Below are positions 14,013 to 64,000 of a stretch of 64,000 nt of DNA, piece after piece. Made by a program: the position numbers and the translations under genes. Under the pieces are notes generated by a model. The model was not told the DNA's origin, did no database searches, and was given only the letters and a program-made list of their open reading frames with translations. Each line of letters begins with the position of its first letter. Within the stretch, counting starts at the first letter, position 1. Origin of the DNA: Moniliella sp. 'wahieum' (lineage: Eukaryota); the NCBI GenBank assembly GCA_003971905.1, contig RSEE01000009.1:682001-746000 (forward strand), in the 5' to 3' direction.

Positions 14013-14250
14013 CCTGAGGCCTGAGGGCCTGAGGCACGTTATTGACCGCTGAGTCTCAGCGCTGCGCCGCGGAGCTGAGCCCCTCAGCTGAAACCGGGGC
14101 CCGCGATATACTCTGGTAGGCTATCGGGGGGAGTGCTCCGCCAGCGCAGCGCCAGTGTGTGACAGAGACGTGCACTGGCGCACTTGGCCACCCAATCAAA
14201 CCCCCAGGGCCCGTTCCACAGGCAACAGTAACTCTAGTAACTAGTAACAC
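14013..14250. repeat. TNA+palindrome heptamer cluster (cctgagg x3, gctnagc-type units, agtaact/ctag units)
   Basis: cctgagg cctgagg g cctgagg at 14013-14034; agtaactctagtaactagtaac at ~14227-14248. Confidence 0.7.
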
Positions 14251-17699: not shown

Positions 17700-20600
17700 C
17701 AGAACACAAAATGATTTGGAAGCTGTTGCGGTCCACATGAACAGGAACGAGCACAGAGAAGGTATATGGGCGTGCCCGCCAGCGCCACAACCAGGTCTCC
17801 AGGGACAGAGGGGATGGGCGAGACACGTTGGCCCACCATGGCTCCACGGCAGAGGGCAGGGTTAGCGAGAGGGCGGCTGGGCCAGTCGGCGATGACACGC
17901 ATCGACGGCTCGCACAGTGCGCGGGTGGGCAGATGCGTACTGGCGCGAAGCTGGGCCAGACGACGCAGTCGCGCGGTGGCGCTGGCGCGGATTCTGGTCA
18001 GTCCACCCGCGGCTTCCGGGCGCAGGGGGGCTGCGGGCCATCCTGAGGTTTCCGTCCCAGCACGAGTGGGAGCCGAGCAGGAACCTGGCAGGAGATTGGG
18101 CTGCGGGCCCATCCGGATGGGTGCCGTCCCAGTGCGGGTGGGGCCCGAGCAAGGACCTGGGCAGGAGATTGAGCAAGACTTGACAGAAGATTGAGCAGAA
18201 GGCTGGGCAGAAAGCTGGGCAGAAAGCTGGGCAGAAGGCTGGACAGGAGGGTGGAGAGCAGAGGGATCTGGCTTGGCCAGCGACAGCGGGCAGGGCCACT
18301 CGTCTCGCCGCCCGTCTCGCCACCCGCCCCGCCGCGAGTCTCGTTGCGAGTCTCGTTGCGAATCTCGCTGCGAGTCGCAACGTGATCCAGGGTGGGCGAT
18401 AGAACGATCGGTGCGGAACCGTCGCGGATTGACGCCACGCTGGGTCAGGTAAGGCAGGTCGGCCCGGCGGAGCTCTGGGCGGAGCCTGGACGAAGCTTTG
18501 GACGAAGTTTGGACGAAGCTCTGAACGAAGCTCTGGGCGGAGCTTGCCCTGGAGCTTGCCCTTTCGCTTTCTTGGAGCTTGTCGAGGAGTTTCCGGGGAG
18601 CTTGTCGAGGTGCCGACGAGCAGGGGCAGCTGGGGCGGTGGGAGCTTGGTGCTGGAACAGGGGCCGAGCATGGGGCCCCGTGTGAGTGGAGGGGACAAAG
18701 AGCAGTCGGCGCGGGGGCGGTTGGAGTGAACGGGCCGCAAGCGGTCCGCGAGCGGCAGCCCGAGGCTGGAGCGGTACGACTGGACGCGGCAGCTGGGATG
18801 CGGGGAGAGGTGCAGCGTGGGCGGGTAGGGGGAGGGAGAGAAGAGGAGGGGGAGGGGAAGGGCGAGGTGGAAGGCGAAGAAGGCGAGGGGAGGGGCGAGA
18901 CGTTTGCCCAGGACCGAGGCAGACGGGGCGCCATGCGCTGGCACCGGGTCGGGATGCTGGACCTGCGGTCGGGGCAAGGCAGGCGGGGGGGGGGCACGTG
19001 CGCCGAGGCGAGGAGCAGGAGCGGGGAGCGGGTTCCAGTTCGTGGGGAGGAAAGAGAGCGAGCTGGAGAAGGTTGTCGGTGCGCTCGACGCGGGTCGTCG
19101 TGCGCCTGGGGCAGAGGTCTCTTGCGAAGGGGCGGCATGCGCGCCCAGGCGCGTCGCGAGGCGGAACGAGGCTCGGATGAGACGCCGCGGCCGGGCTGGA
19201 GGCGGAGCGGGACCCTTGGGTGCTCCGCTCAGGCCTCTGCCTGGGTAGCTTCGGGCGGGCGGCGGCGTGTCGAACTCAAATGACGATCCTTGTACCGAGA
19301 CTGGGGACGGGAGGGAGGAAAACTGCCTGCGAAGCGGTTGAAGGGAGCAGGTCCAAAGGTGGGGTACTCGATGCTGGGTGAAAGTCGCTTGGCGCGCAAG
19401 CCGTTCGCGGGCGGGGGCGGAGGCAGGGGCGGGGCAGGGGGGCGGGTTGGAGATTGAGAGGGGCGTCGATGAGAATGAGAAAGGGGAGGTCATCTGGATG
19501 CTGATTGGCTTGGCGTAGTGTGGCAGGGGGAACAGCAGCGGCTGGTACGTCGGTCGGCAGATGCCGTCGCTGGGCCCGGGAAGATCGAGAAGTTGAGGCG
19601 GTGGCGGGTGCTTGGACGGAGGAGCCGGGCGCAGGGAGGTGGACCGACGGGTCCGAGAGGGAGGCATAGTGACGGAAAGCGAAGACGGCTCGGGGAGATG
19701 CAAAGAAGAGTCGGTGCTGTCGAGACCGCGGGAGCGCGCTTGGGCGAAGGAACGGGGCCTTGCGAGGCGCTGGGACGGGGCATAGCTTGGCCCGGCGGCG
19801 GCATGGACAAGCTTTCATCCAACCGGAGCGAGCGGCTGGGTTGGGGCGCAGCAGGTGCAGAGGCCGACGGCACAATACTGGGCCCAATGCTAGGCACAAG
19901 GCTGGGCTGGGAGACCAGCGCCGATCTGAGGAGGACAGGGAGGAGCGTAGCAGCTGGGACACCAACGACGGTGGAAGAGAGAGGATGCTAGGCGGAGGCG
20001 GGGCGCCGGGCAGGGCTTTTCCTGGCTCGGCTCGGCGCTGGACAAGGAGGATTCGGATGCCAAAACGTCATCTCCATGGCAGCGGCCAGAGGAGACAAAG
20101 GAAGGGTTGGAGGAAGCCGGGTGAGCCGACGCAGCGCCAGCGGGAATGGGTGTGGGAGCCAGAGCGCCACCTTCAGAGGAGCAAGGGCATGGCCAGACCC
20201 AGAATCCGGATGAGCGGTAGTAGCATTGGCAGCGGCGGCAGTGGCAGCAGCCGGAAGTGCCTCTTTGGCCAGGCTTGCACGGTCCGCGCTAGATGCTTCG
20301 CCTCTCTCTACCTCCGGTCCTGACGAAGCAACGGGGAACGCAAGCGGGTTAAAGAAGAGCGGAGCTGGGTTCTCAGTCAAGGGGTTCAGGCTGCGTTGGT
20401 CGGCGGCGGGTTGGACCCAGGGGCGCGGGACTGGGTTACGAAGGAAGAGGAGCGACGTCCCTTTTTGCGTTTGCCACGGTGAGGACGACGGCGTTTGGAA
20501 GAGGGAGGGACGTCGTTCTGGCTCGAAAGCGACGCGTGAAGGAGAGAAAGCAGGCCGGGCGCTCCACTGGACGTGGTGGTGGAGGGAGCAAAGAGATGGT

Positions 20601-24203: not shown

Positions 24204-24281
24204 GGGGTTAGGCAAAATGAGTGTGGTGGCGCCGGGAAGAAGGGGGCGGCAGGAAGGGGCTGTGGGGGGAGGGGGGGATGT

Positions 24282-24362
24282 GGGGACGATGGGGACGATG
24301 GGGACGATGGGGACGATGGGGACGATGGGGACGATGGGGACGATGGGGACGATGGGGACGGT
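24282..24362. repeat. 9-bp tandem repeat (GGGGACGAT)x8 plus one variant unit
   Basis: Eight perfect units at 24282-24353 and GGGGACGGT at 24354-24362, ~80 bp upstream of the GH5 ATG. Confidence 0.95.
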
Positions 24363-25225
24363 GGGCTAGGGAGGCTACGTGGGATGCGGATGAGCAGGCG
24401 GCGAGGGCAGGCCAGCGGGTGGGGGAGGCAATATGCTTTGGAAGCGGCCAGCAGGACGCGCAAGCCAAGGGTAGCGCCCAGGCTGCGCGCAGCAAGGCGG
24501 CCACTGCGCCACTGCCTGGCGCTGCCGCCTGGGGGTTGGATGCGCCCCAGTGCGCAGCCAGGCGCGCGTGGCGGGCCAGGGTGCTTCGGAGTCGGCCGTC
24601 CATATACTGGTGCACGGAGGCGTGCTGTGGCGGGCGCTCAGCTGAGCAGGCCAGGGTGCTGGGTGCTGCGTATGAGCTGCTTATTCTACGTCGCAGACGC
24701 TTCTGTCGCCCACCGAAGCACGCCGGCGGCCACACCAGGTGCGCAACGGCACAACGTATCCATCGTCTCGATCAGCCTCTGCCTCGGCAGCAGGCCAGCC
24801 GCTGTTCCTAGCCCAGCGCAGGCAGCCAGGCCAGGCCGTCAGGCAGGCTAGCAGGCCTAGCCAGCCAGCTCTACATGGCAAGCAGCCCGCCTCGCCACAA
24901 GAATGTACCCAACGCTGGAAGCGTTGACCGAGTACGACTCGGCAGTCCCCACTTGTGCCCAGCTACACTCCGTCCAATCCATCCGCACCTCCCCACGACC
25001 ATGCCCACTTTCTGACATGCGACGCCAGACCACGCATGGTGGCTGATGCGGCCGTGATCGACGGGATGCATGATGGAGGGTCTGACTAGCACCATTCGCG
25101 CGCGCGTGGGGTGCCGGTGGCAGGTGACATGGCACATGGGAGGCAGTGCAGGGGCAGTGTGGGTGGGCTGGCGGCGTAGGGGCAGTGGAAGAGCGCCGGC
25201 AGGGGTCCACCTGGGTCCACCCCGA

Positions 25226-25272
25226 GCATGGCATGCATCATGCACCATGCATCGTGCATCATGCATCGTGCG
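25226..25272. repeat. Degenerate (TCA+TGCA) heptamer array
   Basis: gcatgcatcatgcaccatgcatcgtgcatcatgcatcgtgc, 7-bp period. Confidence 0.75.
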
Positions 25273-33409: not shown

Positions 33410-35910
33410 ATGGTGCTGTCCGAGCTGCCCCACAGCATGCTCAACGGCCCCGCCCCCAACCCCAGGCCCACCCGCCAGCGACCCCAAGCTGCCCGCCCCC
33501 ACCCACCCCACTCCCGCCGCGCCCGACACGGAGCAGGAGGTCACGACGACGATCTCGAGCAGGCCGTCCGTCTCGTCACGGCCTCGGCCGCGGCCCGGCC
33601 CGCAGCCAAGGCGCACCACATGCCCAGCACCCCGCCCGCGCCCTCGCTCGCCTCCCACATACCTACCGTCTCTCCCTCTTCCAGTCCCACGCCACCATCC
33701 CCTCCCCTCGCCCCACTCGCCTCCGTCCCGTCCGCCCCGCGCATCCTCCGGCGCTCCACCCCCTCTGACCGTCCTCGCCTCCCTCGTCCTCGGCCCACCC
33801 GCTCGCCTCCCACCCCACCGCGTGCAGAGTGCCACCCCCCGCGGCCCTGTGCCCGAACCCAGGACGCTCCCCTCCTTCCTCCCCTCCTACGGCCCCAAAC
33901 CCGACCGGACCCACACCCTTCCCAGGCGGTGCATTAGCCCAAGCGAGCTGGCGCTCAAACGCCCCCGCCTCCTGGGTCCACGGCCCCGATCCGCACCCCA
34001 AACGGCGCCCCAGTACCCGGCGGCGGACCAAGGAGGGCGATCCAACACCGTGGCGCTGCACCGACTGTGGCCGGTGCTACTCGCGTGCCGAGTATCTACG
34101 CCGCCATCGGCGTACCCACGAGAAAGTGCGTCCGTGGAGCTGCGTATGTGGGAAGACGTTTGGCCGGTCGGATGTGCACGCGGCACCGGCGACAGTGCCG
34201 CATGGCACATGTCGCTGCCCTCGATACCGGCTTGGCCCAACCAGCTTGTCTCCCGGCCAGCACAAACTGTCGGGCTGGGAAGCGGCGGAGCGGGAGCGGG
34301 AACGCCGGGAACGGGCGCGGTGCCCAGTCCACCTGCCACCGTCGCTGCCTCTCGACGGGGTGCCAACCCGCAAGCCGCCAGTCCGCCCGCGCCCGGGGCC
34401 AGCCAGCCGTTTGGCCACATGGAGTTTCCGCACGCAAGGCTGTCTGCGGGCGTGGCACCGCCGCAGCCGGGCCAGGGTCCCGGTTCAACTTGTCCCGGCA
34501 GCCAGCCGGGCGAAAGGGTCGGGACAGGGCTTGCTAGTCCTTCGCCCTCTCTGCTCCGGTTCTGGCCAGGACCATGGGAGCCAAAAATGGCCACGACTAC
34601 GGCCGTGACCGTGACCATGACCATGACAATGACCATGACCCTGATCATGACGACCACGACTGCAACCACAGCCGTTCCCATTCCCATTCCTTTTCGCTTT
34701 CTGGTGGCGCCGACGCGCACTTCTCGCCCCACTGGCAGGACGTGAGTGGGGACTGTGCCACGCCGGCGCTGGCCAGCACGAGGCCACACGCCTCTGGCGA
34801 CGAGCTGGGCGAACTGGACTTGGGTGTCTGTCGCAGTCGCCGGGGACGATGCTGACGCCTGCTGAGAGTGGAGGTGGATTGGCTCGGTTGCAAGGCGAGA
34901 CGAGCGAAGACGCGATGCACTTTGATCCACTTTCGGTGCCGTGCCGCAATTTGACCCTGCGATGAGGAAGGAGAGGACACGAAGTGCTGGCGTCGCTGCG
35001 GCGGTTACTTGAAGTGCATGGGGACGACGGTCCCGTCCAAGATGATGCGGAAGGCCCAGCCCACGCTCCCCCCCCTGCCCCGGATAGCGACCGCGACGAC
35101 CACCTGGACCTCTCCGTCTTCCCGCCCGCACCACCGAGCAAGCGGAGAGGCCGGACCTGCCCGCGATTTGGCCGTTTTGGCAACTGCCGTAGCCGAGCCC
35201 AACGGCCCCTCCGAACCCACCACGGAGCGGGCTGGAACGAGGGAAGGCGACGAAGCAGGGAGACCGATTAGCTGGCATGGGCTCGGTCCCGGTTCATCCC
35301 AAGCACGAAACGGAAGAGAACGAAGAAGAAGATGCGTTTGGCCATTTCCCCTGACATTTGAGTTCCGGGTGCTTCCGACGCTGTGCCGGAGGAGGAACGG
35401 GGTGAGGGGTCGATGCCACAGCCGGACCATGCGGGGTTGCGATGCACGTCCGTTCACCCTCTTCCTCTCCGGCTGCCTCCCCCGCACCCGAACCCAAACC
35501 CGAACCCGCCCTATATTCCGCCTGCTCGGGTGCGCAGCAGCGCCAACGCATTTAGTGCTGGCACCGAAAGCGCGTCCGTCTCTCCGGCGTCGGTCCTGCG
35601 CGGCATGGCCGCCCGCACGGCTGGCGTGCACGTCGTCTCCCTTTCTTCCGACTGCGTGCGCTGTCGCCCCCGCCCTCTTCGGTTTCGGCGCGAGGATCGA
35701 GGAGAGGAGGAGTGTGCTTCGGTGGTCGCCATACCCACTGCGCTCGACCCGCTGGAGGGAGCGGAGTCAGTGCTGGAGTTGGAAGAGCAGGCGGAGATGG
35801 CTTTCCCGCCGGGGCATACGGTGTGGCGGGCGAGAAGAGGTGAGGGCTTGCTAAGCCCAACCCAACCAAAACAAACCAAAACAACCAAACCAACCCAAAA
35901 CGACAAATGA
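33410..35910 (+). CDS. C2H2 zinc-finger transcription factor (two fingers)
   Basis: WRCTDCGRCYSRAEYLRRHRRTHEKVRPWSCVCGKTFGRSD at ~34050-34175, plus a His/Asp-rich tract at ~34590-34690. Ends approximate. Confidence 0.85.
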
Positions 35911-38885: not shown

Positions 38886-40387
38886 TCCCCCCCCTCTCCT
38901 ACCTTGGCCCACATCCACTTCCCCACCCCCTCCGCCCCAAATGGGCAGACCACATACCGTTGCTGTCGCAACCACTGCCATTGTCGCCAGTATCGCCCTT
39001 CTTTTTGGTGTTTGCCTGTTGCCCGTGTGCCTTCTGTGGATACCTATAACATTACGGTTTACCTCTGCCCAACACTCTCTAGCACTCTAAATCGATACCT
39101 GCGGGGTCATGTGGGCTTTCACGACACCGTTTTCCGCCTTGTGGGGAGGGAACTCTTGGAATGAACTAAACGTGTCGCATGAAGCATGTGGAGAGGTGAG
39201 GGCAGAAGAGCGTATCAGCTTTCTCTGCCCTCTTTTGGGGCAATACCAAGCACACAGAACATCAGCGTCCCGGTTTCCACCCCCAGTCCATGTGAATTGG
39301 CCACTGGGAACCTACGTATCGTAGGGCGCTCGCGTTCTACCGCGAAATCAAGCTCCTCGGTTGGGCCCGTATTATATGGCACGTGGGGCCCAAGCATAGG
39401 GGACCGCCATAAAAAGAGAGACAAGATTGGGAGAGCACAGTGGAGCAGTGGAGCAGTGGAGCCAACAATGCAGGGGTCGCGTCTGTCGAATTGGCCTCGG
39501 ACATGTCCACACCGAGTTATAGGTGTACCATATCACCACAATGCGATGCGATGAGATCATGGGACACTGTGACATCGTGATACATTACTTAGACATAGCA
39601 TAAGCTCTCCTCCGGTATGGGTATGGGCATGCTTCCACAGCGTCCCTTTCCCCCGGTCGAAGGCCGTTCGTCTTTCTCCGCTGCTTGGGAAAGAGATGGT
39701 GAGCAAGGCGCGGATTCCCAGTTGGCCACCGGTCCCGTCCCGGCTCCCCCGCTTCTGCTGCCTAAGTACTTCAGTACTTCAGTTCTTGTACCCTCAGGGG
39801 TGTGGGGCCCTGTTGCGATTAGCGCCCTAGCAGAGAATCCGGTATTCGGGCAATGTGTGTCGATCAACCAGTTGGATTGGGCATTGGGACCTTCCGTCGC
39901 GTCCTGCCTTGGCGTCTCATGCACGTCAGGCACATCAGGCACGTCAGGCACGTCATGTAGTGACTTAGAACAAAAGGCGTCTTCGGCCTTACCGGTTCCC
40001 GGGTACCGGTTACCACCCGTTTTCCTCGACACGTATAGCGTCCATGTCCTTCGAAACTCAGTCTCTTCGTGTCTCCATCCACCTGCTTTTTCAGCTTTTT
40101 GGGGCGTCCGTGTCGTACAAGAGGGAGGCATAATTGCATGGAAGGTATACAAGTGATGCCATAATGACGCATGCATGACGCCTTTCCATCGTTATTAATG
40201 GCTGTGCATAGCAACATGGCTGTCCTTCTCCAGAGCTTCCCCGCCCCCAACGCCTTTGGGCTTTCCCTGGCTTCCCACAACCCACCCCCTGTGGGGCTCT
40301 TTTCCGAAAGCTTGTTCAGTCCCTGTGTCCAAGGTTTGCAAAGGAAGAAGAGATGGATTCTGGACCAGAAAGCGACGCTTAACGTAC

Positions 40388-40415
40388 GTTCAACGTTCAA
40401 CGTTCAACGTTCAAC
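40388..40415. repeat. (GTTCAAC)x4 = (TCA+ACGT) array
   Basis: Four perfect units read directly. Confidence 0.9.
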
Positions 40416-41961
40416 GTGCACTGATCCAAGCGTGTGGCGCATGGGTTTGACAAATTGTCCCTCGCCAGAAAGCCAGGCCCCTCCTTGCTCGTACATAGAA
40501 CCCATCCTTCCGAGCTGGAGATAGGAGAAAACCGAATACAACCCTGCGGGCAGGGGGTGTCACATATGTCACACGTCACATGTCGCATGCCAAATGTAGC
40601 CGGCAACCGGCTGGCCTCCCCGGGAAAGGCGCCGGTAGAGCCGGAAGAGCGCAGAGCGAGAGCTTAGATACCTTGCAGGGCGTTTAGAACTCAGAGCGGC
40701 TCGGGGTGAAATTTGAATTTGACGTTTGATTAAGATTGCGATTAGATTATGAATGTAGTGGATGGGCTTCGGGGGCTGCCCAGGCACGCACACGCAGGCG
40801 ACCGTCACCGGGTCACCGGGGACTAGTCCCTGACTGGTACCTGGTACGTATGGCACATCACTGGTGGCACGTCGATGATGTATGTACAGACGGCCAGTTC
40901 ATTTTTTTGTCCGTGTCGTATGCTTTGGGAGTCGTGTGAGGTGGCGGGGGCTGGGCGGGCGTTGGGCGTTGGGAGCAGTCGCGTGTGGGATGGCCTGGAT
41001 GCAGATGGCGCGGGGCCGCGGGTGGCGAGAGGTGGTGTAGTGCAAGGTGCGACTAGTGTCGGCTAGCGCCTTCTGGCGCCCTAGCCGGTAACCGGTGACC
41101 GGCCTGAAGACGTAGGCTCTGTGAGAGACAGGCGGTTGGCCTGAAGCTTTTGAAGGGTAAAAACGTCAAGCGTGTACCGACAACATCGTTGCGGGATCGC
41201 TCGAATCGTTGCGTGGTGCCTCGATGCAGGATGCCCTGCACTGTCCCTCGACAAAACCCTGTTTTCGAGCCGAGCAGAAAAGGAAAGCGCTAGCGGCAGT
41301 TTAGATAAAGTACCAACGCGCTAACGATTGGCGCTTCGCGTGTAGCGCTTGCGCTCAGTGGCTCAACACATTCTCCTTTTTTCTTGTGGACATTGTTGGA
41401 TCGAACGTATATAGCTGCAAAGGCAAAAGCATGGCGGATCACGCTGACCTGTGACTGCGGTGACCGGTGTGCGTCCCATGTCCCATGTCACAGGTGATCG
41501 AGATCAGTGATAGAGAAAGGCCGGGGTACACGCTGGTGTAAGCGCGAGGATGGCTGATGGGTGAGATCTGTGATCTCAGATGGAATGGACACACTCCGCA
41601 AGGCGGTGGATATGGATTTGTTGATGCAGATAATGTGCGGAGGGAGGGGGGAGAGGGGGCGAGGCGTGTGAGCGTGTGAGCGCGGGAGGCGGCAGGTACG
41701 GTGCCTGTGAGTACGCGTGCAGCCACTGGTGAATCTAGGCGGTGGATTGGGGCCGGGGGCCGGGGGGCGGTGTGCGCGGCGTGTGCGCTGGCGCGTGTCA
41801 CAGTCACACCCTGCCAGCTATCGGCCGCACGCCCGCGAGCAGCCGCTACGTAGCAAGACTGCCCCGACAGGAGGTTGCGCCGCTAGGGTTATGCCGGGGG
41901 GCGCCACCAGCCCCCACCGTCGCCGCACGGGGCCGCCCTGGCGGCGTGGCGAGGCGTGCGG

Positions 41962-41989
41962 CGTGACGCGTGACGCGTGACGCGTGACG
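41962..41989. repeat. (CGTGACG)x4 = (TGA+CGCG) array
   Basis: Four perfect units read directly. Confidence 0.9.
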
Positions 41990-42941
41990 CGTGCGGTGCG
42001 GCTGGCCATGTGCGCGGGCTGGGCGAGCACATGCGGTCGGGCGGTGCTTAGTGCTTAGTGCTTGGGGACGCCGGGGCTGGCCGGGGCAGTGTTTGGTACC
42101 TGCAGCTGGTAAACTCAGTCCTTCGCCCAGCCGTGCCTGGCCCATGCTCAGCGTCACCCACCCGCCCCTCACATCCCGCCACGCCCAGGCACACGCCATC
42201 CCCAGCGCTTCTTCTTCCGCCCCGCCCCCCCCCCCCACCACCACCACCTGCCCAGATGCTGTCCGTGCCCTCCCCCGCCCCCCCCGGGCGCGCACCTGGC
42301 CCATCCACCCACCCTCCCCGCCGAGTCCCTGTCTGCGCCTGGCTCCACCTCCAGCTCCGCCTCCAGCTTCGCCTCCACCTCGGCCTCCCCCGCTTCTTCC
42401 GCCGACCCCCCACGCATCTTCACTCGACCTGCTCGCTCCGCCCTGCGCCCCCGTCGACAGTAGGTTACCCCCCCCGCCCCCCTTCGCGCCTGTCGGCCAA
42501 GCGATGCTGACGGACGGACGGACGGACTGACTGACTATCTTGTCTCGCCCGCCAGGACCCCCGTTCGCACGCCCAGCAGTCCAGTACCCGAACTTCTGCC
42601 GAGCCACCCGCACTTTGCTCCTCGCCCGCCCCTTGCACCATCCCCATGCTGACGGCGGTGAACCCCGTGCGGTCCCGCTCCTCCTCCCAGTCGCAGCACG
42701 TACCGGACCTAGTCCCCCCACTCGCCTCGCCGTACTCCCGCCCGTCTATGGCCTCTTCCCTTGCCGCCACCCCTCGACCGATCGGTTGTTGGATCCTTCG
42801 TTGCCGACCTGCAACAATCTGGCAAGCGCCCCCCCCTGCGCCTATTTCTCCCCGCTCTCCTACCTTACCCCACAGGCCCATCCATCGCAGGTGCCCAGCA
42901 CCGCGCTTCCCAGGAATACGGCTGCTCTTCCCGCGCTGACC

Positions 42942-47899: not shown

Positions 47900-50800
47900 T
47901 GATCTAGCACGTTACAATCGCCAACCAGAAAGGTTTGGCCTGTGCGGTTTCGACGTACCTTTTGGAAATCTGGGTTGGACAAGTGGACATGTGGCCTGGT
48001 GGACTTTTGGGCTTGTGGTACCACGAACGGGGCTGGGTCACTCGCCGGCACCTGGCCTGGGGCTTTCATCCGCCGTTGCCCCTGACCCAGGAGAATCGGC
48101 GAGGCAGATGGAGGCGGTCATGCAGGGGCCGCAAAAAAGCATCGCATGGCTTCCCATCCGCTCGGTTCGCACATCTCCCAAGTCGTTCCGCGTGGTGGCG
48201 ATGGTGGTGGGCAATGGCGCGAGTGCTGGGCATGACGGCATAAGCGAGCCAGTCTCTCAGCGCGCTCTTTTGTCGGCGTAACGACGACCGCATCGTAACT
48301 TGCTATTGCCGCTGCGGGCTGCCATTGCACATTTCAAATCCATCCCCTCCGCTTTGCCCAAGGGATGTCCAAGCGGATCTAGGGACGAGGAGCTGCTGTA
48401 CATGTGGCAAGGTGGGCAGTGCACACCGGCTCGGCCCGTAGTATACCGTGTCTGAAGCCTCCGGGGCTTAGGCGCTTAGGGACGGGTAGAGGCAGGGGAG
48501 GACAAACACTGCCGACTTGCGTCGTATTTCTCCGTCAACGCGTCCATGCAGGTCCAAGAGCTGTGGATGACCTAATCACGTGGGCCACCGAGCCGAGTTG
48601 TGGGCGTCGCAACTGACATCCTCCCGGGCCGTAACCATTCCCGTACCTCGCCATGGCCAACTCTCAGCTTCCAGCCCCCCGCGCGCAAAAACATCAACAA
48701 CAACGATTAATGACTACGAGCCGATGGACTAGATGGAGTGGAGGTGTCCGTGGGGCAGATTCCGGCTCACTGTTGAAGTCGACAGTACGCCAGTCACACC
48801 CGTGAGGGTGATCTCTGCATGCGTTGCGGGCACGCGGGTCATTGGCGTAACGAGTGCCCCTTGGGCCAGAATGGCAATTGCCCCGGGCAGTGTGGCCGTC
48901 GGTTTTGGCCCCAAGGGATGTCTAATCGGAGTCGCCGGGCCAAGGGGGGTCGGGCCAGGCGAACGAGAGGGCAGCTCGTCGAGCGCGCTGGAGCAGGCGC
49001 GCCATAGGGGCAGGGGCCCCGCCGGATGTGTGCCACGTCCACCTACTCCTGCCGACGGTCGTCTAGCTACCGCGCCTACATGTTTCCAGACGGACTTGGG
49101 CACGCAACCACGTTATTAAGCCTAGTGGACACGGGGGTCGAGAGGTCGTTTATTGACCGCGGAGAAGTGCGCATTACGGGTACGTCCTGACTCCCCTCCC
49201 TGCCCCCCGCAGGTGCGGCTATTGGATGGGCGAAGGATCTGGTCAGATCAGGTTACTCACTCTTTCCTTTTGTCTTTTAACCTAGGAAGTCGAACGTTCA
49301 GCCACGAGTTCCTCGTTACGTCGATTCCGCGTATGCCGCGGTCTTGGGTACCAACTTTCTGTACGCCAATAAGGTGTCGCTCTCCTTTGCTCGAGATGGT
49401 TCAGACGAGCTTAGCTTTAAGGGCGATGGTCCCCCGATCGAGTGTTGTGGCATCATGAACATAATTACGAGCTTCAACAAGATGACGATCTCGTCGGCCG
49501 GCAAGTGTGGGTCCACGATCAGGGAGGTGGTGGCTACGCCCTGAGAGATTCAAGGTGCTCAAGCCGAGACCGAGACTGATAGAGGCGTACAAGGACCAAT
49601 CGCCCGAGGGAGAGGTGATCGAAGCCATACGGGGGCTCAAGGAGCACGACAGTGGATACGAGGCCATCGTGGCGGGAGTGGAAGAGGGCTGTATACCGCA
49701 GGGATATGAGGTGCGCAACGGGTTTCTCTACTTCCAAGAGGCGCTCTACGTACCCGACCGTCCGAATCACTGCGGTATATACCTTACTTTACGATCACCA
49801 CGACAAGCCCGAGGTTGCGCACCAAGGAAGAGAGCCCACGTACGATCAGCTGAGGCCTTGGTACGATTGGCCTGGAATGACCTTCGATGTGCGTCGCTAC
49901 GTGGGAATGTGCTCGTCGTGTCAAACTGCGAACAGCCGCCGCCATCGCCCCTATGGTTTACTGCATCCGTTGGAAATACCAGCCCGGCCTTGGTCCAGTT
50001 TCAGCATGGATCATTTCGGTCCCTTGCCAGAGGGAGGGCTTGGAAGCAAGGGTGAGACGCTGAACATGTGGGGGTTGATCAGCTGTCCAAGATGGTGGTG
50101 CTCATGCCATACAGCTCGAGCGACACCGCAGGTCGCTTGTTTGAGCGGCTGACGGTGAAGGTGTTCCACGTGTGCGGGTTGTCTACCCAGATCGTGAGCG
50201 GCAAAGGTCCCTTGTCCACTTCCTCCCAGGTGCGTGGCTTTTGCGACAAAAATGGCATTAGCCAATGCATGGCCACTACCCAGCACCCCCAGTCCGATGC
50301 GACTTGATTACGACTCATCTGCGCCAATTCGTTAGCCATATACAATCCGATTGGGTCGAATACCTTCCCTCAGCCGCATTCACGCTCAACACTGCTCACT
50401 CCGCCTCAACAGGATTGTCTCCGTTCTACAGCATGCATGGGTTCCCGTCGCGCAAACCAGGAGACCCAGCCGCCCAGCCGGGTGGGCCAGAGGAGGAACA
50501 TCAAGTGGTCCAGGCCGAGGTAACTGAGGCGGCCAAGGAAGCTTTGGAAAAGGCACGCAAGCGAGCCAAGCGCTATGTCGATCGGCTCCGGAATGAGGAA
50601 ACCCCGGATGCTTCAGACACGTTACTACGACCCACAGCCGGTGCGTCCGCAGCCTTGCCGCATGTGCAGCCGCCTCCGCTTCATGCCCAAAGGCCTCTCC
50701 GTGCGTGTGCGGCTGATGCATGCCCGCAGTGAGAGGTCCTTTTGACGACTCGACGTTCGCACCCGACGAACTTGGAATAGTGACAAGCCCAGAGCACGCT

Positions 50801-56364: not shown

Positions 56365-59300
56365 AGTCAGGTCGGGGTCGAGGCTGAGGTCGAGCTGAGG
56401 GCCGGAGCGGCTGGGGCGTCCGGCACAGCTTCCTGGGTAAGGGCAGACGAGGGAGAAGGCGATATGTGGGCAGCAAGGCAGAAAGGAGGTCCTGGGGGCG
56501 TGGCCGCTTGTGCAGGCGGCGCAGAAGCTGTGGTTGCAGCGGGATCCGATGACGGCAGCCACGGTTCAGGCATAGCAGCGGCAGGCGGGGGGCTGGGAAA
56601 AGGGAGCGTTGGCGGTGAACGCTGAGCGTTGGCAGTGCCGTGGGGGAGAGGGGAGGCGGTAAGACGACGAGCCACGAGAGGGAAGCGATGGAGGTGGAGC
56701 AGAGGAGGCAGGGGAGGCACACAGAGAGGGGACCGCAGACGGAGCAGACGGGGGAGGGGGCAGAGAAGGAGCGGTTATTAATTATTGCTGCAATGGCCGA
56801 GCTGGGTTGTGCCGCTACTCCCTGCCGCCCAGTGCTGCACCCGCGCAGGCCAGCGCTCTGCAACACCCGGCGACTATGCTGCGTGCATGGAGGTCACCGG
56901 TCACCGATAGTGGGGAACGGGGGTCGATTGATCATATTGATGGCAGATGGCAGATGGCTGACCGGCATCCACTATATCCACACTGCACCCGAGTTGCAGC
57001 GGGTGAATATGGTGAATGGTGTCCAAGAGGAAAGCACGGCGCCACTTTGGGTGCCCGGTAGCAGCGGCCAGTGTCCTGGTGGCTGGAGGCGAGCCGGTGG
57101 TGACCGATGATCCGGTGAAATATGGTCGATGAGGTCGATGATGTGGATGATGCACGACGCGTGACGTGTGATATACGATACAATTGTCTCTGGTGGGACG
57201 CGTGGCGCACGACCGGTACGTGTAGCTGCCCCGCAGGGTGCAGTCTGAGATCTGTTGAGATCTAAGGTCTGGATCTGACCTCCATCTAGCCTTCCCTGTG
57301 CCTTCCCTCTTGAAGCTCTTGAAGAGCTTGCTTGACGCTCCTGAAGCTCTTAAGCTTGAAGCTCTTCAAGACGAAGAAGCTGCAATGTCCAACGCCACTT
57401 TCAGGCCAAAGCGTCACAGGCCACAGTAACCTGTCGACATCCTGCATTGCTTATTGTTTTTACTACCAATCGTCCTGCCGTTGATTAGAGCCAAACAACG
57501 GTCACATCGCCACTAGTCACTAGTCACTAACCAAGAGCTGGAGACGGAGCCTGAGGTAGGCCTGAGGCCTGAGGGCCTGACGCGTGACGGAGCCCGATGG
57601 CCGACTGCATTTGGGGCGTACGCTGGCGTACTTTGGTTGCTGCGATGCGGTGGGTGTGGATCATCGATCAGCTCTGAGCCTGAGCGCTCAGGCCGAGCGT
57701 TCATCGTGACGCGTGACGCGTGTGAAGCTTGAAGCTTGAAGCTTGAAGCTTGAAGCTTGAAGCTTGAAGCTCTTGAAGCTTGAACGGGAATGTTCAAGTT
57801 GAACGTTGAACGTTGAACGTTGAACTTCAACTCAACGTTCAAACGTTCACACAGTCACTGGTCACTAGCTCCTGTAGTCACTAGTAACTAGCCACTCTAG
57901 TCACTAGTCACTAGTCCCCTAGTCCCTAGTCAATGTGTTCCCGTTTAACAATGGTCGAACGCAGTACAGAGCGTTTGAATCAATCGAATCGATGAATGGA
58001 AATGGGCATAACATGTAACAATACTAATTGATCATTGAATATGGATCCTCGATAATAGCGGAAATGGACCATGGTGCATGGAAGAGCAGCGCATGTGACG
58101 CGCTGGTACGGTAGTAGGTACAGTGACGCAGACAGGCAATGGCCCGTCGACCCCTGCGCGTTGCGCGTTGCGTTCATGCACATTGGACCCAGCCGGCTGT
58201 TCCAGCGCAAAGCTTAAAGCTTAACGCCTAGCGCTGAACGTAAGCTTTCAGGCCCTAACACTTACAATTTAACGCTTTTAAAGCTCACCAAATCGTGTCA
58301 GGACCACAGTACCAGTACCAGTACCAGTACTCCGTGCCAATATTCAATCGACATCGATCAGGTGGAAGTTATCCCTGGGATCTCATCGATCTCATCCTAT
58401 ACATCCTATCTCAGTCCGATCATCGGTACTTCGGGGTACAAAACATGTTACAATCATCGATCATCATTAGTATGGAGTGTCTCACGTTCAGTACGTAGTT
58501 CAGTAGTCAACCTGAGTACTCAGTTACTCAACTCCTCAATACACCCAACGTTCAGTGTTCAACCTCAGTGCTCCTCGGTACTCGATACTCTGTGTACTCA
58601 ACCTCAGGCCTCAACGTCAGTCCTCACGATATACCCAACCCAGTAACTAGCTTGCCTCGTAACCGTCATGGATCTTGAGGGCCTCAGGCTGAGGACTCGT
58701 ACCGGTGTCGGTACCACCAAGTACTCGTATAATACGCAACACCCAGTACACTCAGTATTCAGTGGCCTGGGCCTGACCCTCAGGCCTCAGGCTGAGGCCT
58801 GACCGGCTGACCTCGGGCCCTCAGGGAGGGATTTGAACTTTGGGCCTGGTGCAAAGAAGGCTGGAAGCAGGACTATCGGTCACCGGTCACCGGTCACCAG
58901 CGAATGATCAGGCAATCATTTAATGACACATGAAGCGCTCAGACTGAGCGCGCGGGATCCAGTCCCAGCAGTATATACTGACGGAGATGTACTGCTAGTC
59001 CACAACTTTTTTTTGTTTTGGATTCTTTTTGAGGCTCAGGCTGAGCGCTCAGGTTGGGTACTCAGGTACTCAGTACTCAGTGGGTACTCCGTCTGAGAAA
59101 TGTGAGATCTGAGGCCCTGAGAGGCCCGAGGCCTGAGGCCCTGAGGCACAAGGCGCTCAGCTCAGGCCTGAGGACTCTCAGTCCGAGTAGTCACGTCGTC
59201 ACAATCATTTGTGAGTTGTGACATGTGAGCATGGTAACCGGTAACCGGTAACCGGTAACGCGTAACGCGTAACGCATAACGTTTACTAGTTCCGTTCCTA

Positions 59301-59395
59301 GTTAGTTACTAGTTACTAGTAACTGTCGTGACGCGTGATGTGTGATGTATGTGATTATTATTCGCCGTCTTAATCATCCCACTATACTCTGTACC

Positions 59396-59441
59396 GACAG
59401 AGCTTAAGCTGGGACGAAGAAACGCTGCGCCTAAACCGACC
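59396..59441 (+). repeat. Dispersed repeat copy A
   Basis: gacagagcttaagctgggacgaagaaacgctgcgcctaaaccgacc, alignable with copies B-D. Confidence 0.8.
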
Positions 59442-61066
59442 AGCCTTTCCTGCTTGTGGAAGCGGGTCGGGGTGGTGGTGGGGACGGTCGCTTGTGGACG
59501 TTGGAGGAATTCTGTGGGCGCAGTGGGGAGTCGGAGGGAAGGAAGAGCAAGAGAAGGGGACAAGGGATTGTGCGTATATATATGTAGGGCAAGGAGGCTA
59601 GATCTCTAGCTCTCTCTCCACATCTGTGGGTACGCGGGTGTGGGAGGCGAATGATGTTGTAGTCTTAGATCTCAACACAAGTGGGTCGGAACCCTGGCAT
59701 TGGCCAACCCCAAAAGCTCTATATTATAGCACTGAAGCTATGAAGGAGGTCAATAAATCCCCGGAACGGAGCCCATGCGCTTTCCATTGCATGTCGCAAC
59801 AGGTCAGCCCGTGTGTTTTACACTGCTTGCCTGTTTTTGCCGCCACTACGAATGAGCTGCGCACACTATCGGCTTCAAGCTTCAACAGATTCATGATTTC
59901 CACGGTTCCTTCGTATCGATATATTCCTTCGTATCCACTTTTTGCAGCTTTTCAACTCAACGCCAGGCCTGAACGCCTGAACGTTGAACGTTGAACGTTG
60001 AACGTTGAACTACTCTATCGACGATTCTTCTCCACTATACATTTCTGTGGAGGCAAGTGATTACAGTGGCTACTCTTTTAGTATAGCTATCTGCCTATAG
60101 GCCTACTCTTCTTCGACGCAACATAGTAGCTGGCATAAAACGCAAAACCAGAGACCAATATTCTATTCATGGGACCTACGCCTTTTCTCTCAAAGCAATA
60201 TTGAGACGTTCGCCCCTTTTGCTATTCACGCGCTCATCGCCTTCTGCCCCACATTCTCCAAGCCAAGCCTTCTGTCCGCGTCACCGGTCATTCTTCAAGT
60301 CACCTGATGCACCTGTTGCATGGTAGCCTAGTTTTCCTCTGTTCGTTTGACATGTGACATGTGACATGTGACATGTGGCATGTGACATGTGACAAGCGTC
60401 CACTTTATATATTCAGTAGTGCTGCCATCTGCATCACCAGGCCGAACCGGGGACCGGAGAGTCCAGTCAGAGACCAGGGGGTGGTACGATTATTCATGTG
60501 GATGAGGAAACAGCAGCAGGGTGTGGACATTGGACTTAGAACAAAAAAGGTGGCTTATGAAAAAAGAGGGACAACACAGAAGAAGAGCAACACCTTTGTC
60601 TCCAGGGAATCGGAGTGTGCGAGACACGGGAGCCTGTGCCTTAGTGGTACTTGGAGTGGGATACAGTAGGACACAATCTAAGGGTAACCGGTAACCGGTA
60701 ACCGGTAATCGGTAATCGATCGGTAATCGAGTATCGAGTACTGCCAAATGGAGAAGTACTGAGACCGATGAAACGTGTGAGACGTGTACTATGGCTCGGA
60801 AGAAGGCGTTGTATCCCGATTAAATCTGTGGGACGCATCCCGTATATGCGTCTTTGATAGGCCCCATTATCCGTCCCAATTGCTGTTCCGATGGAAAACA
60901 AGGTGAAATACTATATGGGCCATCTCCTCCAATGGACCAAATGTACTGCCACACCACACCACTCTCCTCGTTGCTGGCTTCTTGATCTCTCCCTTTTGCT
61001 TCTCTCACGCCCTTGTCCTAAGGCCCTCTAGGATCTGATTGCGTATAGATAGTATTCACTGACCTT

Positions 61067-61153
61067 GGTGGCGCTTCCAAGTAACCCCCGCAAGATGAAC
61101 GGTTCGGTTTAGACGTAGCGTTTCCCCTGTCCAGCCTTAAGCTCTGTCAATGA
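61067..61153 (-). repeat. Dispersed repeat copy B (inverted)
   Basis: Reverse complement reads tcattgacagagcttaaggctggacaggggaaacgctacgtctaaaccgaaccgttcatcttgcg...ttggaagcgccacc. Confidence 0.88.
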
Positions 61154-61780
61154 AATGGACGTGGTCTAGAGAAAGGACCTCAATCTCATTGACGGCCAAT
61201 CCTTATCGACATTCACTATCATTATTCGAGTTTGCATCATCAGGTCATGAAACTACTATCAGTGCATTTAGTATTTAGCCTCTCATCGGTCACCAGACGC
61301 GGCTCGTCGCGCTCATCGTGCGTTTGTGGCTACTGAGGTCCCTTCACTCTCTCCCTCCCGAAGCCTGTATATAGGAGCTCCGAGATGTTTTCGCGCTTTT
61401 ATTTTCTGAGTGGGGCCCCCGGGCTCATACCACCACGCACCACCAATCGCTATAGGGCAATACCACCACCCTCAAGAGGGCTCTCAGAATCTCATACCTC
61501 AGGTTACTCTCATGAAGCTTGAAGGACCTCAAGCTTCAGCGCTTCGAACTACAAGCTTCAACCTTCAAGCCCTTCAAGCTTCAAGCCTTCAAGCTTCAAG
61601 CCCTTCAATCTTGAAGCTAATAGCTTGAAGGGTCAGAACCCAGATCTCAGGCTATAGGCCGGTCAGGCCATCATGCATAGGTCTCAGGACCCCATTTACC
61701 AGTTACCGGCCTTACCCACCTTCCCTCCCTTTAACTTTTCAGTCCACAAAAGAAACATCTCTGTAGCTGTATCTCTCTTG

Positions 61781-61844
61781 TGCATCCATATCATTGACAG
61801 GGCTTAAGGCTGGGACTGGGAAACGTTACTTCTAAACCGACCCG
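61781..61844 (+). repeat. Dispersed repeat copy C
   Basis: tgcatccatatcattgacagggcttaaggctgggactgggaaacgttacttctaaaccgacccg. Confidence 0.88.
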
Positions 61845-63657
61845 GAGGACCTTGTGATTTGCAAATTACGCAGAGAGTTGCGCGTCTACACGTCTACGTG
61901 CGCGTAACGCGTAACGCTTGGTGCATGCAATGGTGTGCGTGACGCGTGACGGTGTCTTACTAGCACTCGCGTCACGCGTCACTCGTCACTGTTAACGCGC
62001 TGACGGGACAACATCGAATACTGACAATGGCAAAGTGCAAAACACTCTCAACGTTCAAAACACTCTCCCGAAGAGGGTTTTGGTGTGTCCCTTTATCAAG
62101 TAACGCGTATAATGCGCGTAAATTGTAACACCGTCGTCTTCGGGATATATACTACCTGCTACCGCTTATCCCCTCATTAATCATCACACATGTCGCATGC
62201 ATTATTGCCAAAACTCTCCTCAGACTGTTTGCTGTGGATGACGCCGATATGATAATAGTAGCCTGTGGGCAGTAGTGACATCATTGAAGCAACAGTCGCA
62301 TTTTAGTGATATCAAAATGACCGACAACAGCGGCTCAGGCAGGCGACCATACGCAATGACTCTAGTGACTGCAGGATCTCATCGCCAAGCCCGGGGCCGA
62401 CGCGGTATTTGTTATAGATACCTCAGGACGTGCGTGATAGCTCTTCTCGGTGACGGTCATTAGATTGATCCGAAAGTCCAGAGCCGCGTAACGGGGGGAT
62501 GTACATGTAATCCGCGGGAATTCGAAAGGGATAGAAAGATGAGTTTTTCAGAGTATCTTTCTATTTTTCTTCCTCGCGGCGTTACAACGGTGCAATGGTT
62601 CTTTCGTCTTCCCCGGTCATGCATCATGCATCATGGGATTATAGGGTCACCCACCACACAATGACGACTGTGTTGTTCCTATTTAATTTCCTTTGTGGAG
62701 AGCGATACCATACTATTCCTCTCCGGTCTCTCACTTGTATATATATCCTTCTCGTCTTGTCCGCGCCAAGCCAATTATTAAACCAGTGGAGTCGCCAGCA
62801 GGTCAGGACCCTCTATTGGTGCCTGCCATTCCCTTCCCCACCGGATGTACTAGCACGTGAGAATGAGAGAGGTATAATATAGATAGGCATATTGTGAGCG
62901 ACGGTGAACGTTGAACCATCTCCAAGGCTCATCATGCATCACCCGACGACGGTTTTTCAGCCCCCATACAGGTTATTGGCTGTCTTCGTGGCATAGTATC
63001 CGTGCGTCGTCATGACCAAGGGGAATAAAGCTTGAAGACTCTTCAGCGTGCCCCTGGTGCTTGACATTCTTGTCGCATTTCACTTGTTCCAACAGTCATC
63101 GAAGTAACTCCAACTCGTTATTGTACCGGCATTTCAAAAGACGTTACGGTTCCCTCGTGTACCACCTTCCGGTACGCAATCGTCGCCTCGAGTCCTTTGT
63201 GCCCGGATCATGCAAAATTAAGATATGGTTCACTCCTATTCCTGATCCTCCAAAGGCTCTAGGTCCCAACATCACTCGATCGCTATAATATTCTGTGATG
63301 TACGCCTCAGCGCCTGTCGCCCATGCCTCTCGTCTCTCGTCTTCCTCTGGACCGTAGACTCGTTATATTGTACATATATCAGTGTCCGTGTTGATGAGCA
63401 GTGTGTAACGATGGGGGGCGGTGAAAAGGTGAATCATGAGATGGAATAAAACTGTAGACAACGGAACGGTGGGACAGTGGACAATGGGACGATGGAGCAG
63501 TGGCCCAGCGCCCAATATAAGCCGGACCGTGGGCCCTGTAGTCTGCTATTAGTTTACTATCTCAGAAAGGCTGTAGTACTGAGAGGTGGAAAGGTTCCCA
63601 ATATCTCGCTGGAGCTGGACCGAACAAGCCAAAAAGAAAATGACTTTTTTGCTACTC

Positions 63658-63756
63658 TGCATCCACATATCATTGACAGAGCTTAAAGCTGGGACAGGGG
63701 AAACGCCACGCCTAAACCGACCCGTTCATCTTGCGTGTTTGCTTGGTAGCGCCACC
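63658..63756 (+). repeat. Dispersed repeat copy D
   Basis: tgcatccacatatcattgacagagcttaaagctgggacaggggaaacgccacgcctaaaccgacccgttcatcttgcgtgtttgcttggtagcgccacc. Confidence 0.88.
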
Positions 63757-64000
63757 CCTGTTAGGGAACCAGGGGGATCGCCAGGATATCAGGACCCTCT
63801 GGTTCTCGCCATCCGGTCCCGTACCCTAGGAAGCGCGTGTGGACACGAATGAACGTGGTTGACATCCGAGCGAGGAACCATTTCCATTGAGACTGAGTAG
63901 CCAAATCCTCCCAATGCGCAAACATCTTGCCCGCTGTCTTGGTGCCGTAGTATCCTCTCGCGTCGTCAAAACCAGGGGGAAAAACGGCTCTTGAGTGCGT

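Follow-up and report, generated by a model that had tools for sequence, protein, structure and literature searches.

In a stretch of 64,000 nucleotides (nt) of Moniliella sp. 'wahieum' DNA (contig RSEE01000009.1, positions 682,001 to 746,000; the whole stretch is called the window, and all positions below are counted within it), tandem arrays of many different heptamers follow one rule, in which a TNA triplet precedes a self-complementary tetramer. An earlier sequence-only reading had proposed this grammar for 57240–62640, and counts across the window bear it out. Relative to a background of 200 dinucleotide shuffles, TNA-wxyz-TNA 10-mers with a palindromic wxyz were strongly enriched (93 versus 5.95 ± 2.48, with a shuffled maximum of 16), whereas those with a non-palindromic spacer occurred at chance level (85 versus 89 ± 9). 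The region 57240–62640 alone held 68 palindromic 10-mers, compared with 1.2 ± 1.0 in shuffles. These counts confirm that the heptamer rule is real and lies far beyond chance.

The rule is specific to both the anchor and the spacing. Spacers were palindromic in 52% of cases with a TNA anchor (93/178) versus 3.3–7.6% across the 15 other XNY anchors, in keeping with the TNA anchor of the earlier reading. Only spacers of 4 nt were enriched; those of 2, 6 or 8 nt between TNA anchors were palindromic at chance level. Tandem-doubled 7-nt odd palindromes were centred on TNA in 41 cases, on CNG in one and on GNC or ANT in none, and among single odd palindromes those centred on CNG and GNC outnumber the TNA-centred ones in this G+C-rich DNA. 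No self-complementary arrays of period 5, 6, 8 or 9 were found in the window. Because the rule is base- and length-specific, it points to an enzyme with symmetric T and A contacts, beyond DNA structure alone.

Exact runs of period 7 numbered 24, against 11 of period 6 and one of period 8 at comparable thresholds. Among the window's 52 exact runs of period 7 that reach 14 nt or more, 29 could be rotated to TNA plus a palindrome of 4 base pairs (bp), where a chance share of 2.7% is expected (448/16384, an arithmetic estimate); two of the remainder are of G....C types and 21 fall outside the rule. For runs of at least 18 nt, 15 of 20 obeyed it. The arrays can equivalently be parsed as a 6-bp palindrome, A-wxyz-T, plus one base, or as a head-to-tail 7-bp odd palindrome, x'w'-T-N-A-w-x. 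Since seven pairs of in-phase neighbours carry different palindromes (six of them with the same N), versus a single pair of neighbouring different odd palindromes, the quantum is better taken as TNA plus an even palindrome, which is the unit that had been proposed.

In all, 14 palindromes occur among 68 chains of the 10-mers, with a flat spectrum in which AGCT is commonest. The sequence-only reading had listed arrays of all 12 palindromes that contain C or G, and each of these does occur at or near the place given for it; only nine of them, however, build exact arrays of 14 nt or more in 57240–62640 (AGCT, ACGT, CTAG, CGCG, CCGG, CATG, GGCC, GTAC and TGCA). GATC is represented by two units 3 nt apart (57247) and by single 10-mers, while GCGC and TCGA occur as single TNA-palindrome-TNA 10-mers only. 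It had also seen no arrays of AT-only palindromes, and none of these is indeed repeated, but they are depleted rather than absent: TTAA (three times) and AATT (once) make up four of the 68 chains, a 3- to 4-fold depletion (P = 4e-5 at the region's 50% A+T and P = 0.011 at the window's 40%).

Anatomy of single events, chain ends and joints

Isolated scars were defined as 10-mers with no other within 40 nt (n = 31), and an end was called armed where the 2 nt beyond the outer TNA continue the palindrome. Of these scars, 18 were one-armed (11 on the left only and seven on the right only), four had both arms and nine were unarmed. Armed ends thus numbered 26 of 62, where 1/16 is expected (P = 1e-15), while chance alone should supply ~6 10-mers in the window and ~6 unarmed isolated ones. 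The typical single event is 12 nt long: TNA and 2 nt of its flank are present twice, as a direct repeat of 5 nt, around the reverse complement of those 2 nt, for a net gain of 7 bp. In the 18 one-armed and the four two-armed events the 2-nt filler mirrors the adjacent arm, as P-nucleotides do; such mirroring of the flank argues for a hairpin-closed end that was opened off-centre. By contrast, a plain duplication of a 7-bp odd palindrome would yield two arms and a 3-bp duplication with element termini would yield none.

In the 68 chains, too, the palindrome often runs on for 2 nt past the outermost TNA, on the left in 40 and on the right in 35 (chance, 1/16). The length of the continuation is bimodal, and its two peaks, 0 nt and 2 nt, each comprise 19 and 22 ends. 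The centre base N is identical in both TNAs of 78 of the 93 10-mers, and the event therefore includes a direct duplication. In six cases N has flipped to its complement (G/C in five, T/A in one), which we read as longer hairpin-derived tracts that extend the palindrome.

TNA-containing 5-mers recurred at a distance of 7 nt in 62 cases, 8 nt in 16, 9 nt in 16 and 6 nt in nine, over a background of 1–7. Distances off by part of a unit (6, 8 and 9) thus numbered 41 versus 62 at exactly 7, and the bases gained or lost map to the middle of the palindrome or to its edge beside TNA. Indels at one position indicate a fixed, imprecise joint rather than slippage of whole units. With one rule spanning 29 of 52 runs and this share of part-unit distances, the arrays do not behave as an ordinary micro- or minisatellite.

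Separately, all seven one-armed isolated scars in the gene-rich part at 1–24000 were left-armed on the + strand (none right-armed), and 56–64 kb holds both kinds. This may reflect a strand or direction bias, or small numbers.

The chain and scar ends bear directly on the Tc1-like origin that the sequence-only reading had suggested. Tc1/mariner elements leave the footprint TA-CA-TG-TA, and PIF/Harbinger elements duplicate TNA or TWA targets; elements of a PIF/Harbinger- or Zator-like kind, with a 3-bp TNA duplication and an excision that left behind 2 nt from both inverted ends, would account for the period of 7, the copied N and an automatic palindrome. The nine unarmed scars of 31, and the roughly one third of chain ends that stop exactly at TNA, would agree with this, and GGCC and CATG would presumably match PIF-like and Tc1/CACTA-like termini. 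Yet some six unarmed 10-mers are expected regardless, and the palindrome continues past the outer TNAs at far more ends than chance allows, both in isolated scars and in chains. Moreover, 14 palindromes in a flat spectrum would require a dozen families with different termini (at least 12–14 dinucleotides), and neither a transposase in the scanned open reading frames nor, apart from one weak candidate, an element with inverted ends was found in the window. We consider this origin very unlikely. Tc1/mariner and PIF/Harbinger scars do resemble the present ones in their layout of duplication, palindrome and duplication and in the TNA target, but there the palindrome would be set by the element ends, whereas here it appears to follow the local flank, as the one-armed events and the 14 palindromes suggest. 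For PIF/Harbinger in particular, TNA is the anchor, yet what is repeated extends 2 nt beyond TNA, and neither a DDE_Tnp_4 transposase nor its Myb-like partner was present among the scanned open reading frames (ORFs) of the window.

Proposed repair scars at a TNA-centred site

The likeliest single account, which we hold tentatively, is that the arrays are piled-up repair scars: a 7-bp TNA-centred site would have been cut, or entered and left by an element, again and again, with hairpin processing of the ends. In general outline this is the TNA-directed cut with hairpin-type repair that had already been raised from the sequence, and it gives the best fit to the scar anatomy. A two-fold symmetric, sequence-specific enzyme, most likely the transposase of a low-copy cut-and-paste element, would act at a 7-bp site with a T-N-A centre, reading T and A on both sides of an unreadable centre base. 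N would be free because the middle base of an odd-length site escapes recognition by a symmetric enzyme, and T and A would be fixed in the anchor by enzyme contacts at ±1. Insertion would generate a 7-bp duplication, and at excision the flanks would be sealed as hairpins. If these were opened two bases off the tip, 4-nt palindromic 3' overhangs would result, each made of two flank bases and P-nucleotides; one overhang would then be retained and the other clipped, or both would anneal into a seamless joint where the arms were already complementary. Keeping one hairpin overhang and clipping the other would explain the 5-nt direct repeat with its 2-nt inverted filler, and AT-only palindromes would be scarce because a 4-nt overhang must pair or be held. 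Between two TNAs the joint would then hold two flank bases followed by their reverse complement, so that 7 bp would be gained and the palindrome could have any sequence. Every scar would be a new TNA site with complementary arms, such that repeat events there would give uniform arrays, perhaps extended by replication slippage once two units were present, and use of the other arm of the site would give a different palindrome in phase.

What the sequence shows directly is the grammar, its restriction to TNA and to 7 bp, the one-armed form of single events, mixed arrays in phase and indels at the joint; we infer that an enzyme acts, that 7 bp and not 5 bp are duplicated, that hairpins form and that a mobile element is involved. 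A 5-bp duplication with two P-nucleotides would give the same product, with TNA asymmetric in the target, and appears less natural. It is possible, if rather doubtful, that the arrays reveal an undescribed DNA-writing process in this basidiomycete lineage, in which a TNA-specific symmetric enzyme together with hairpin processing would lay down 7-bp quanta that record the two cut-adjacent bases; such an enzyme might belong to a transposase family, new or domesticated, whose target is 7 bp centred on TNA.

Several results weigh against the scar account. When all chains of a single 10-mer are considered, their ends look independent (neither armed in 14, one in 28, both in 15) and not strictly one-armed; we presume that chance matches, and arrays broken up by centre indels, account for this. 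The P-nucleotide-like 2-nt inserts at a distance of 9 can all also be read as small tandem duplications. The product expected where both overhangs are kept, TNA-pal4-pal4-TNA, occurs once, which is chance level, and TNATNA, expected where both are clipped, occurs 93 times versus ~99 by a composition estimate, with no obvious excess. Of 209 stop-to-stop ORFs with 130 or more amino acids, the 148 longest were scanned, and no transposase domain was detected in them or in 28 short ORFs, 27 of which lie in 56.9–64 kb. A scan of the window for inverted ends beside 2–9-bp duplications returned array-to-array matches and one weak candidate only. We know of no superfamily that pairs flank hairpins with a 7-bp duplication centred on TNA, and all of the evidence comes from this single window.

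The weak candidate, judged unconvincing, is a pair of GGTCACC arrays (56892 and 58877) whose inner flanks match each other over 7 nt in inverted orientation. The two arrays (56892–56912 and 58871–58898) lie ~2 kb apart, with inner 7-nt borders that are reverse-complementary to each other; these borders could match by chance, or could mark the termini of a composite element with much of the array-rich DNA inside it.

A structural origin was weighed against the same data. The arrays might be structure-driven microsatellites, in which slipped intermediates that form hairpins are stabilised or escape mismatch repair, replication slippage lengthens the arrays, template switching inside the quasi-palindrome restores complementarity lost to point mutations, and the TNA bias comes from replication or repair in this lineage. 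Palindromic loops evade mismatch repair in yeast, and folding predictions for single strands of the arrays give hairpins in which 6-bp blocks alternate with N-N mismatches and TNA forms the loop; for five arrays the folding z-scores were -3.8 to -5.6 in three and -1.9 and -1.6 in two. Such an origin would also suit the uniformity of N within arrays of up to eight units, the clean changes of palindrome without intermediates (for example CCGG to CGCG), the depletion of AT-only arms and the preponderance of period 7 over periods 6 and 8. Nor is there an excess of palindromes that are one base off, as one complementary pair is present in 38 of the 85 spacers that are not palindromic (~41% by chance). 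However, hairpin stability is indifferent to the pair that flanks the unpaired base, and gives no reason for T and A to stand there, yet CNG, GNC and ANT arrays are missing (41:1:0:0 for TNA, CNG, GNC and ANT), as are self-complementary arrays of the other periods. The isolated events are one-armed and 12 nt long rather than doubled palindromes, and slippage can neither start from these nor make them; ~40% of repeat distances are off by part of a unit at a fixed position. On the strength of the centre bias and the imprecise joint, slippage alone is insufficient for the shared rule, as had been argued before. We regard hairpin-assisted slippage as unlikely, while giving it more weight than any other rival.

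Heptamer arrays from elsewhere also speak against it. A metagenome scan for (TNAAGCT)4 returned at least 120 contigs of all base compositions carrying isolated arrays, with a second palindrome type at one of 120 loci. In viral contigs the palindromic heptamer was found at 13 loci, a non-palindromic control at 10 and the CNG version at one, which gives no general palindromic excess. The metagenome arrays were rejected as relatives of those in the window, because the multi-palindrome rule is missing from them. Heptamer arrays on their own are common; what sets this DNA apart is one rule shared by many units.

Further structural ideas were discarded. A GNA-type triloop mini-hairpin finds no counterpart, since GNA-centred arrays are absent among the runs that do not fit the rule, and deamination of CNG to TNA is contradicted by the intact C and G within the palindromes.

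If one enzyme made the scars, the arrays would preserve a legible record of cut-and-repair events in their thousands. From every scar one could then read the enzyme's target, its cut geometry, and the opening of hairpins and joining of ends by the host, in a little-sampled group of fungi. If so, a repair process could build microsatellite-like promoter DNA de novo, as raw material for regulatory change, and behind the arrays would stand a transposase or nuclease whose target, nnTNAnn, is both unusual and simple. The rule is easily searched for in any genome, and a genome-wide count would show its spread.

Comparison with known transposon scars

Flanking-DNA hairpins are formed by MULE, hAT and Transib elements and by RAG1, host enzymes of the Artemis kind may open them, and sealing by end joining often leaves footprints (as set out in part of PMC5499845). 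The scars in the window resemble hAT, Mutator-like and Transib footprints and V(D)J coding joints, as described there, in their flank-mirroring palindromic additions, kept duplications and variable end-joined joints (PMC5499845). Those transposon footprints are single and irregular, however, with duplications of 8, 9 (9–10) or 5 bp, whereas the scars here are arrayed and have a regular TNA-centred 7-bp quantum. For Transib, a 5-bp duplication with 2 P-nucleotides fits the arithmetic but leaves TNA asymmetric, and a period of 7 fits neither 8 nor 9. A hAT-type 8-bp parse (n-A-wxyz-T-n, with the joint at N) was rejected, as exact runs rarely begin with A or end with T and the indels lie at the palindrome centre.

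Excision of the P element leaves long 3' overhangs and is not known to form hairpins. Within the P superfamily, the target duplications of Galileo are 7 bp long; their consensus, GTANTAC, is an odd palindrome that lies in a palindromic motif of 15 bp, and transposon target motifs more generally are palindromes that reach beyond the duplication (both from part of PMC4168063). Galileo, 1360 and the P element, with 7–8-bp duplications in palindromic motifs, share with the present units a length of 7 bp and a free centre base; they differ, as far as that account of them goes, in the order ANT rather than TNA, in arms of fixed bases rather than any complementary pair, and in being animal elements (PMC4168063). 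In addition, and set against a duplication of the Galileo type, the single events here keep only five of seven bases on one side.

Prokaryotic heptanucleotide simple-sequence repeats are alike in forming period-7 tandem arrays in intergenic DNA (part of PMC4692102), but they are bacterial and archaeal, while the window is fungal and one rule covers many units. A literature search, in which subscription journals were poorly covered and supplements stayed unopened, found no description of rule-following heptamer arrays in fungi or elsewhere. The nearest reports, on palindromic repeats of Fusarium mitochondria (part of PMC7218506) and unusual telomeres of Microstromatales yeasts (part of PMC13234504), are unrelated. 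The known kind closest to the arrays would be end-joining or transposon scars, here turned into tandem arrays, and there is a fair chance that the enzyme itself is new.

Genomic setting of the arrays

The window is nuclear fungal DNA, with ORFs encoding TEA/ATTS, DUF1765, Sec7, sugar-transporter, riboflavin-kinase, RBBP4/CAF1C and C2H2 domains. The best named matches of the TEA and RBBP4 products are to basidiomycetes of the smut/Malassezia group (Malassezia, Exobasidium, Thecaphora and Ceraceosorus); for RBBP4, identity is ~50% to these and up to 75% to database proteins without a name, and a close named relative was missing among the matches. G+C content is ~60% in the gene-rich part of the window and 50% in 58–64 kb. 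From 57.3 kb to the end of the window every frame is of at most 160 residues, none of the 27 short frames scanned in 56.9–64 kb matched Pfam, and tRNA and Rfam scans of the window gave no matches. This gene-free stretch adjoins a decayed retroelement.

The arrays are confined to gene-poor stretches, in 5' intergenic or promoter-side DNA, and the heptamer rule is at background level in the gene-rich parts and in the retroelement remnant. In 57240–62640 perfect 10-mers cover 617 of 5401 bases and aligned arrays cover 982 (11–18% of the region). Other long intergenic stretches are likewise filled with arrays, near 14.0, 14.2, 25.2, 39.8–42.0 and 56.9 kb. No long paralogous segments usable as a natural experiment on the +7 gain were found in the window.

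This distribution bears on two further explanations. The first dispenses with a mobile element: a resident TNA-specific nuclease, domesticated or cellular, could cut the DNA, with fold-back or templated error-prone repair writing the 7-bp quanta. It would share the sequence specificity and joint anatomy of the scar account, and would sit well with more than 60 scars but no element in 64 kb, and with the restriction of the arrays to gene-poor, promoter-side DNA. A staggered cut with fill-in would however give non-palindromic spacers, which are at chance level, a single break alone does not duplicate TNA, and no candidate gene was seen in the window; we judge a resident nuclease improbable. The second explanation takes the arrays as selected protein-binding or chromatin elements, such as promoter half-sites (TGAC, TTAC) or centromere-type DNA, for which their 5' intergenic position and the gene-free DNA of 50% G+C at 57.3–64 kb, next to a decayed retroelement, could be cited. 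But proteins read bases, not complementarity between positions, 14 palindromes obey one rule, and the units decay freely, all of which makes selection for binding the most far-fetched of the accounts considered. We therefore rank repair scars first, followed by hairpin-assisted slippage, a resident nuclease, Tc1-like scars and binding sites, with the remainder left to something else.

Table 1 Heptamer arrays and single scars in the window. Units are written as TNA-palindrome.
Position	Unit or scar	Copies	Details
14013..14035	TGA-GGCC	3	One-base insert at centre; outside 57240–62640
14224..14248	TAA-CTAG		CT insert; outside 57240–62640
25232..25271	TCA-TGCA type		Part decayed; outside 57240–62640
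40379..40420	TTA-ACGT-ACGT, then TCA-ACGT	4.6 (TCA-ACGT)	Sole doubled palindrome; array at 40386-40420; outside 57240–62640
40804-40820			Further array; outside 57240–62640
41951..41998	TGA-CGCG	4.7	Outside 57240–62640
56892..56906	GGTCACC (TCA-CCGG type)	2	Doubled, isolated; outside 57240–62640
57247..57265	TGA-GATC, then TGA-GATC-TAA		3-nt gap between the two
57307..57371	CTTGAAG (AGCT type)		Extra CT or AG at palindrome centre (period 9)
57501..57529	TCA-CTAG		Array
57549..57602	TGA-GGCC, passing into TGA-CGCG		Indels at centre of GGCC units
57661..57692	TCA-TCGA-TCA, then TGA-GCGC-TCA		Single scar, then G-to-C flip of centre base that yields a 14-bp perfect palindrome (57679)
57705..57722	TGA-CGCG	2.6
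57723..57784	TGA-AGCT	8.6	Longest array; one CT insert at palindrome centre; hairpin fold z = -5.6
57798..57849	TGA-ACGT, then TCA-ACGT	4 (TGA-ACGT)	Same palindrome after orientation switch
57850..57932	TCA/TAA-CTAG		With decayed TCC-CTAG copies
58209..58285	TAA-AGCT		Array with decayed units
58764..58825	TCA-GGCC to TGA-GGCC to TGA-CCGG		Quasi-palindrome, centre near 58791
58877..58898	TCA-CCGG	3.1
59034..59081	TGA-GCGC-TCA, then TCA-GTAC		14-bp palindrome (near 59040), then array
59103..59171	TGA-GATC and TGA-GGCC		Adjoining and in phase; one-base centre insert in GGCC units
59233..59281	TAA-CCGG to TAA-CGCG	3, then 2	Clean in-phase change; decayed units after
59283..59324	TTA-CTAG		Array
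59970..60010	TGA-ACGT	4.7
60348..60394	TGA-CATG	6.7	Single A-to-G change
60683..60733	TAA-CCGG, grading into TAA-TCGG and TAA-TCGA	3 (TAA-CCGG)
61515..61630	TCA/TGA-AGCT		C or CC at palindrome centres; one TCA-GCGC in phase
61897..62005	TAA-, TGA- and TCA-CGCG
62617..62635	TCA-TGCA	2.7

Outside the rule, the hexamer TGACCA is repeated 7.7 times at 34606–34651, beside or inside a C2H2 zinc-finger frame, and resembles TGA-CATG minus one base.

Other repeats in the window

The retroelement remnant is marked by an Integrase_H2C2 zinc-binding domain (E = 1e-14) in a broken frame at 49619–50149 on the + strand, as of a decayed long terminal repeat (LTR) retroelement; a search of 44.5–55 kb around it found no long terminal repeats.

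A dispersed repeat of ~75–110 nt is present in four copies, at 59396–59457 (+), 61089–61159 (-), 61785–61858 (+) and 63666–63738 (+), two of which face each other 625 nt apart. It has no Pfam, tRNA or Rfam match, and a promoter module, an LTR fragment and an element end are candidates for its nature. Relative to the copy at 63666–63800, the copy at 61785 is split by ~894 bp (61862–62755), with borders near heptamer arrays (the CGCG types at 61897–62005 and TGCA at 62617–62635); at these borders neither a duplication nor inverted ends were present.

Two further repeats lie within long open frames. At 18028–18562, two copies of a 72-bp repeat are followed by several 12-bp arrays in a frame of 650 residues without a Pfam match, whose product is probably a repeat-rich, disordered protein. 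At 24281–24365, a 9-bp repeat (9.4 copies, 98% matches) lies within overlapping long open frames and may encode a tripeptide repeat.

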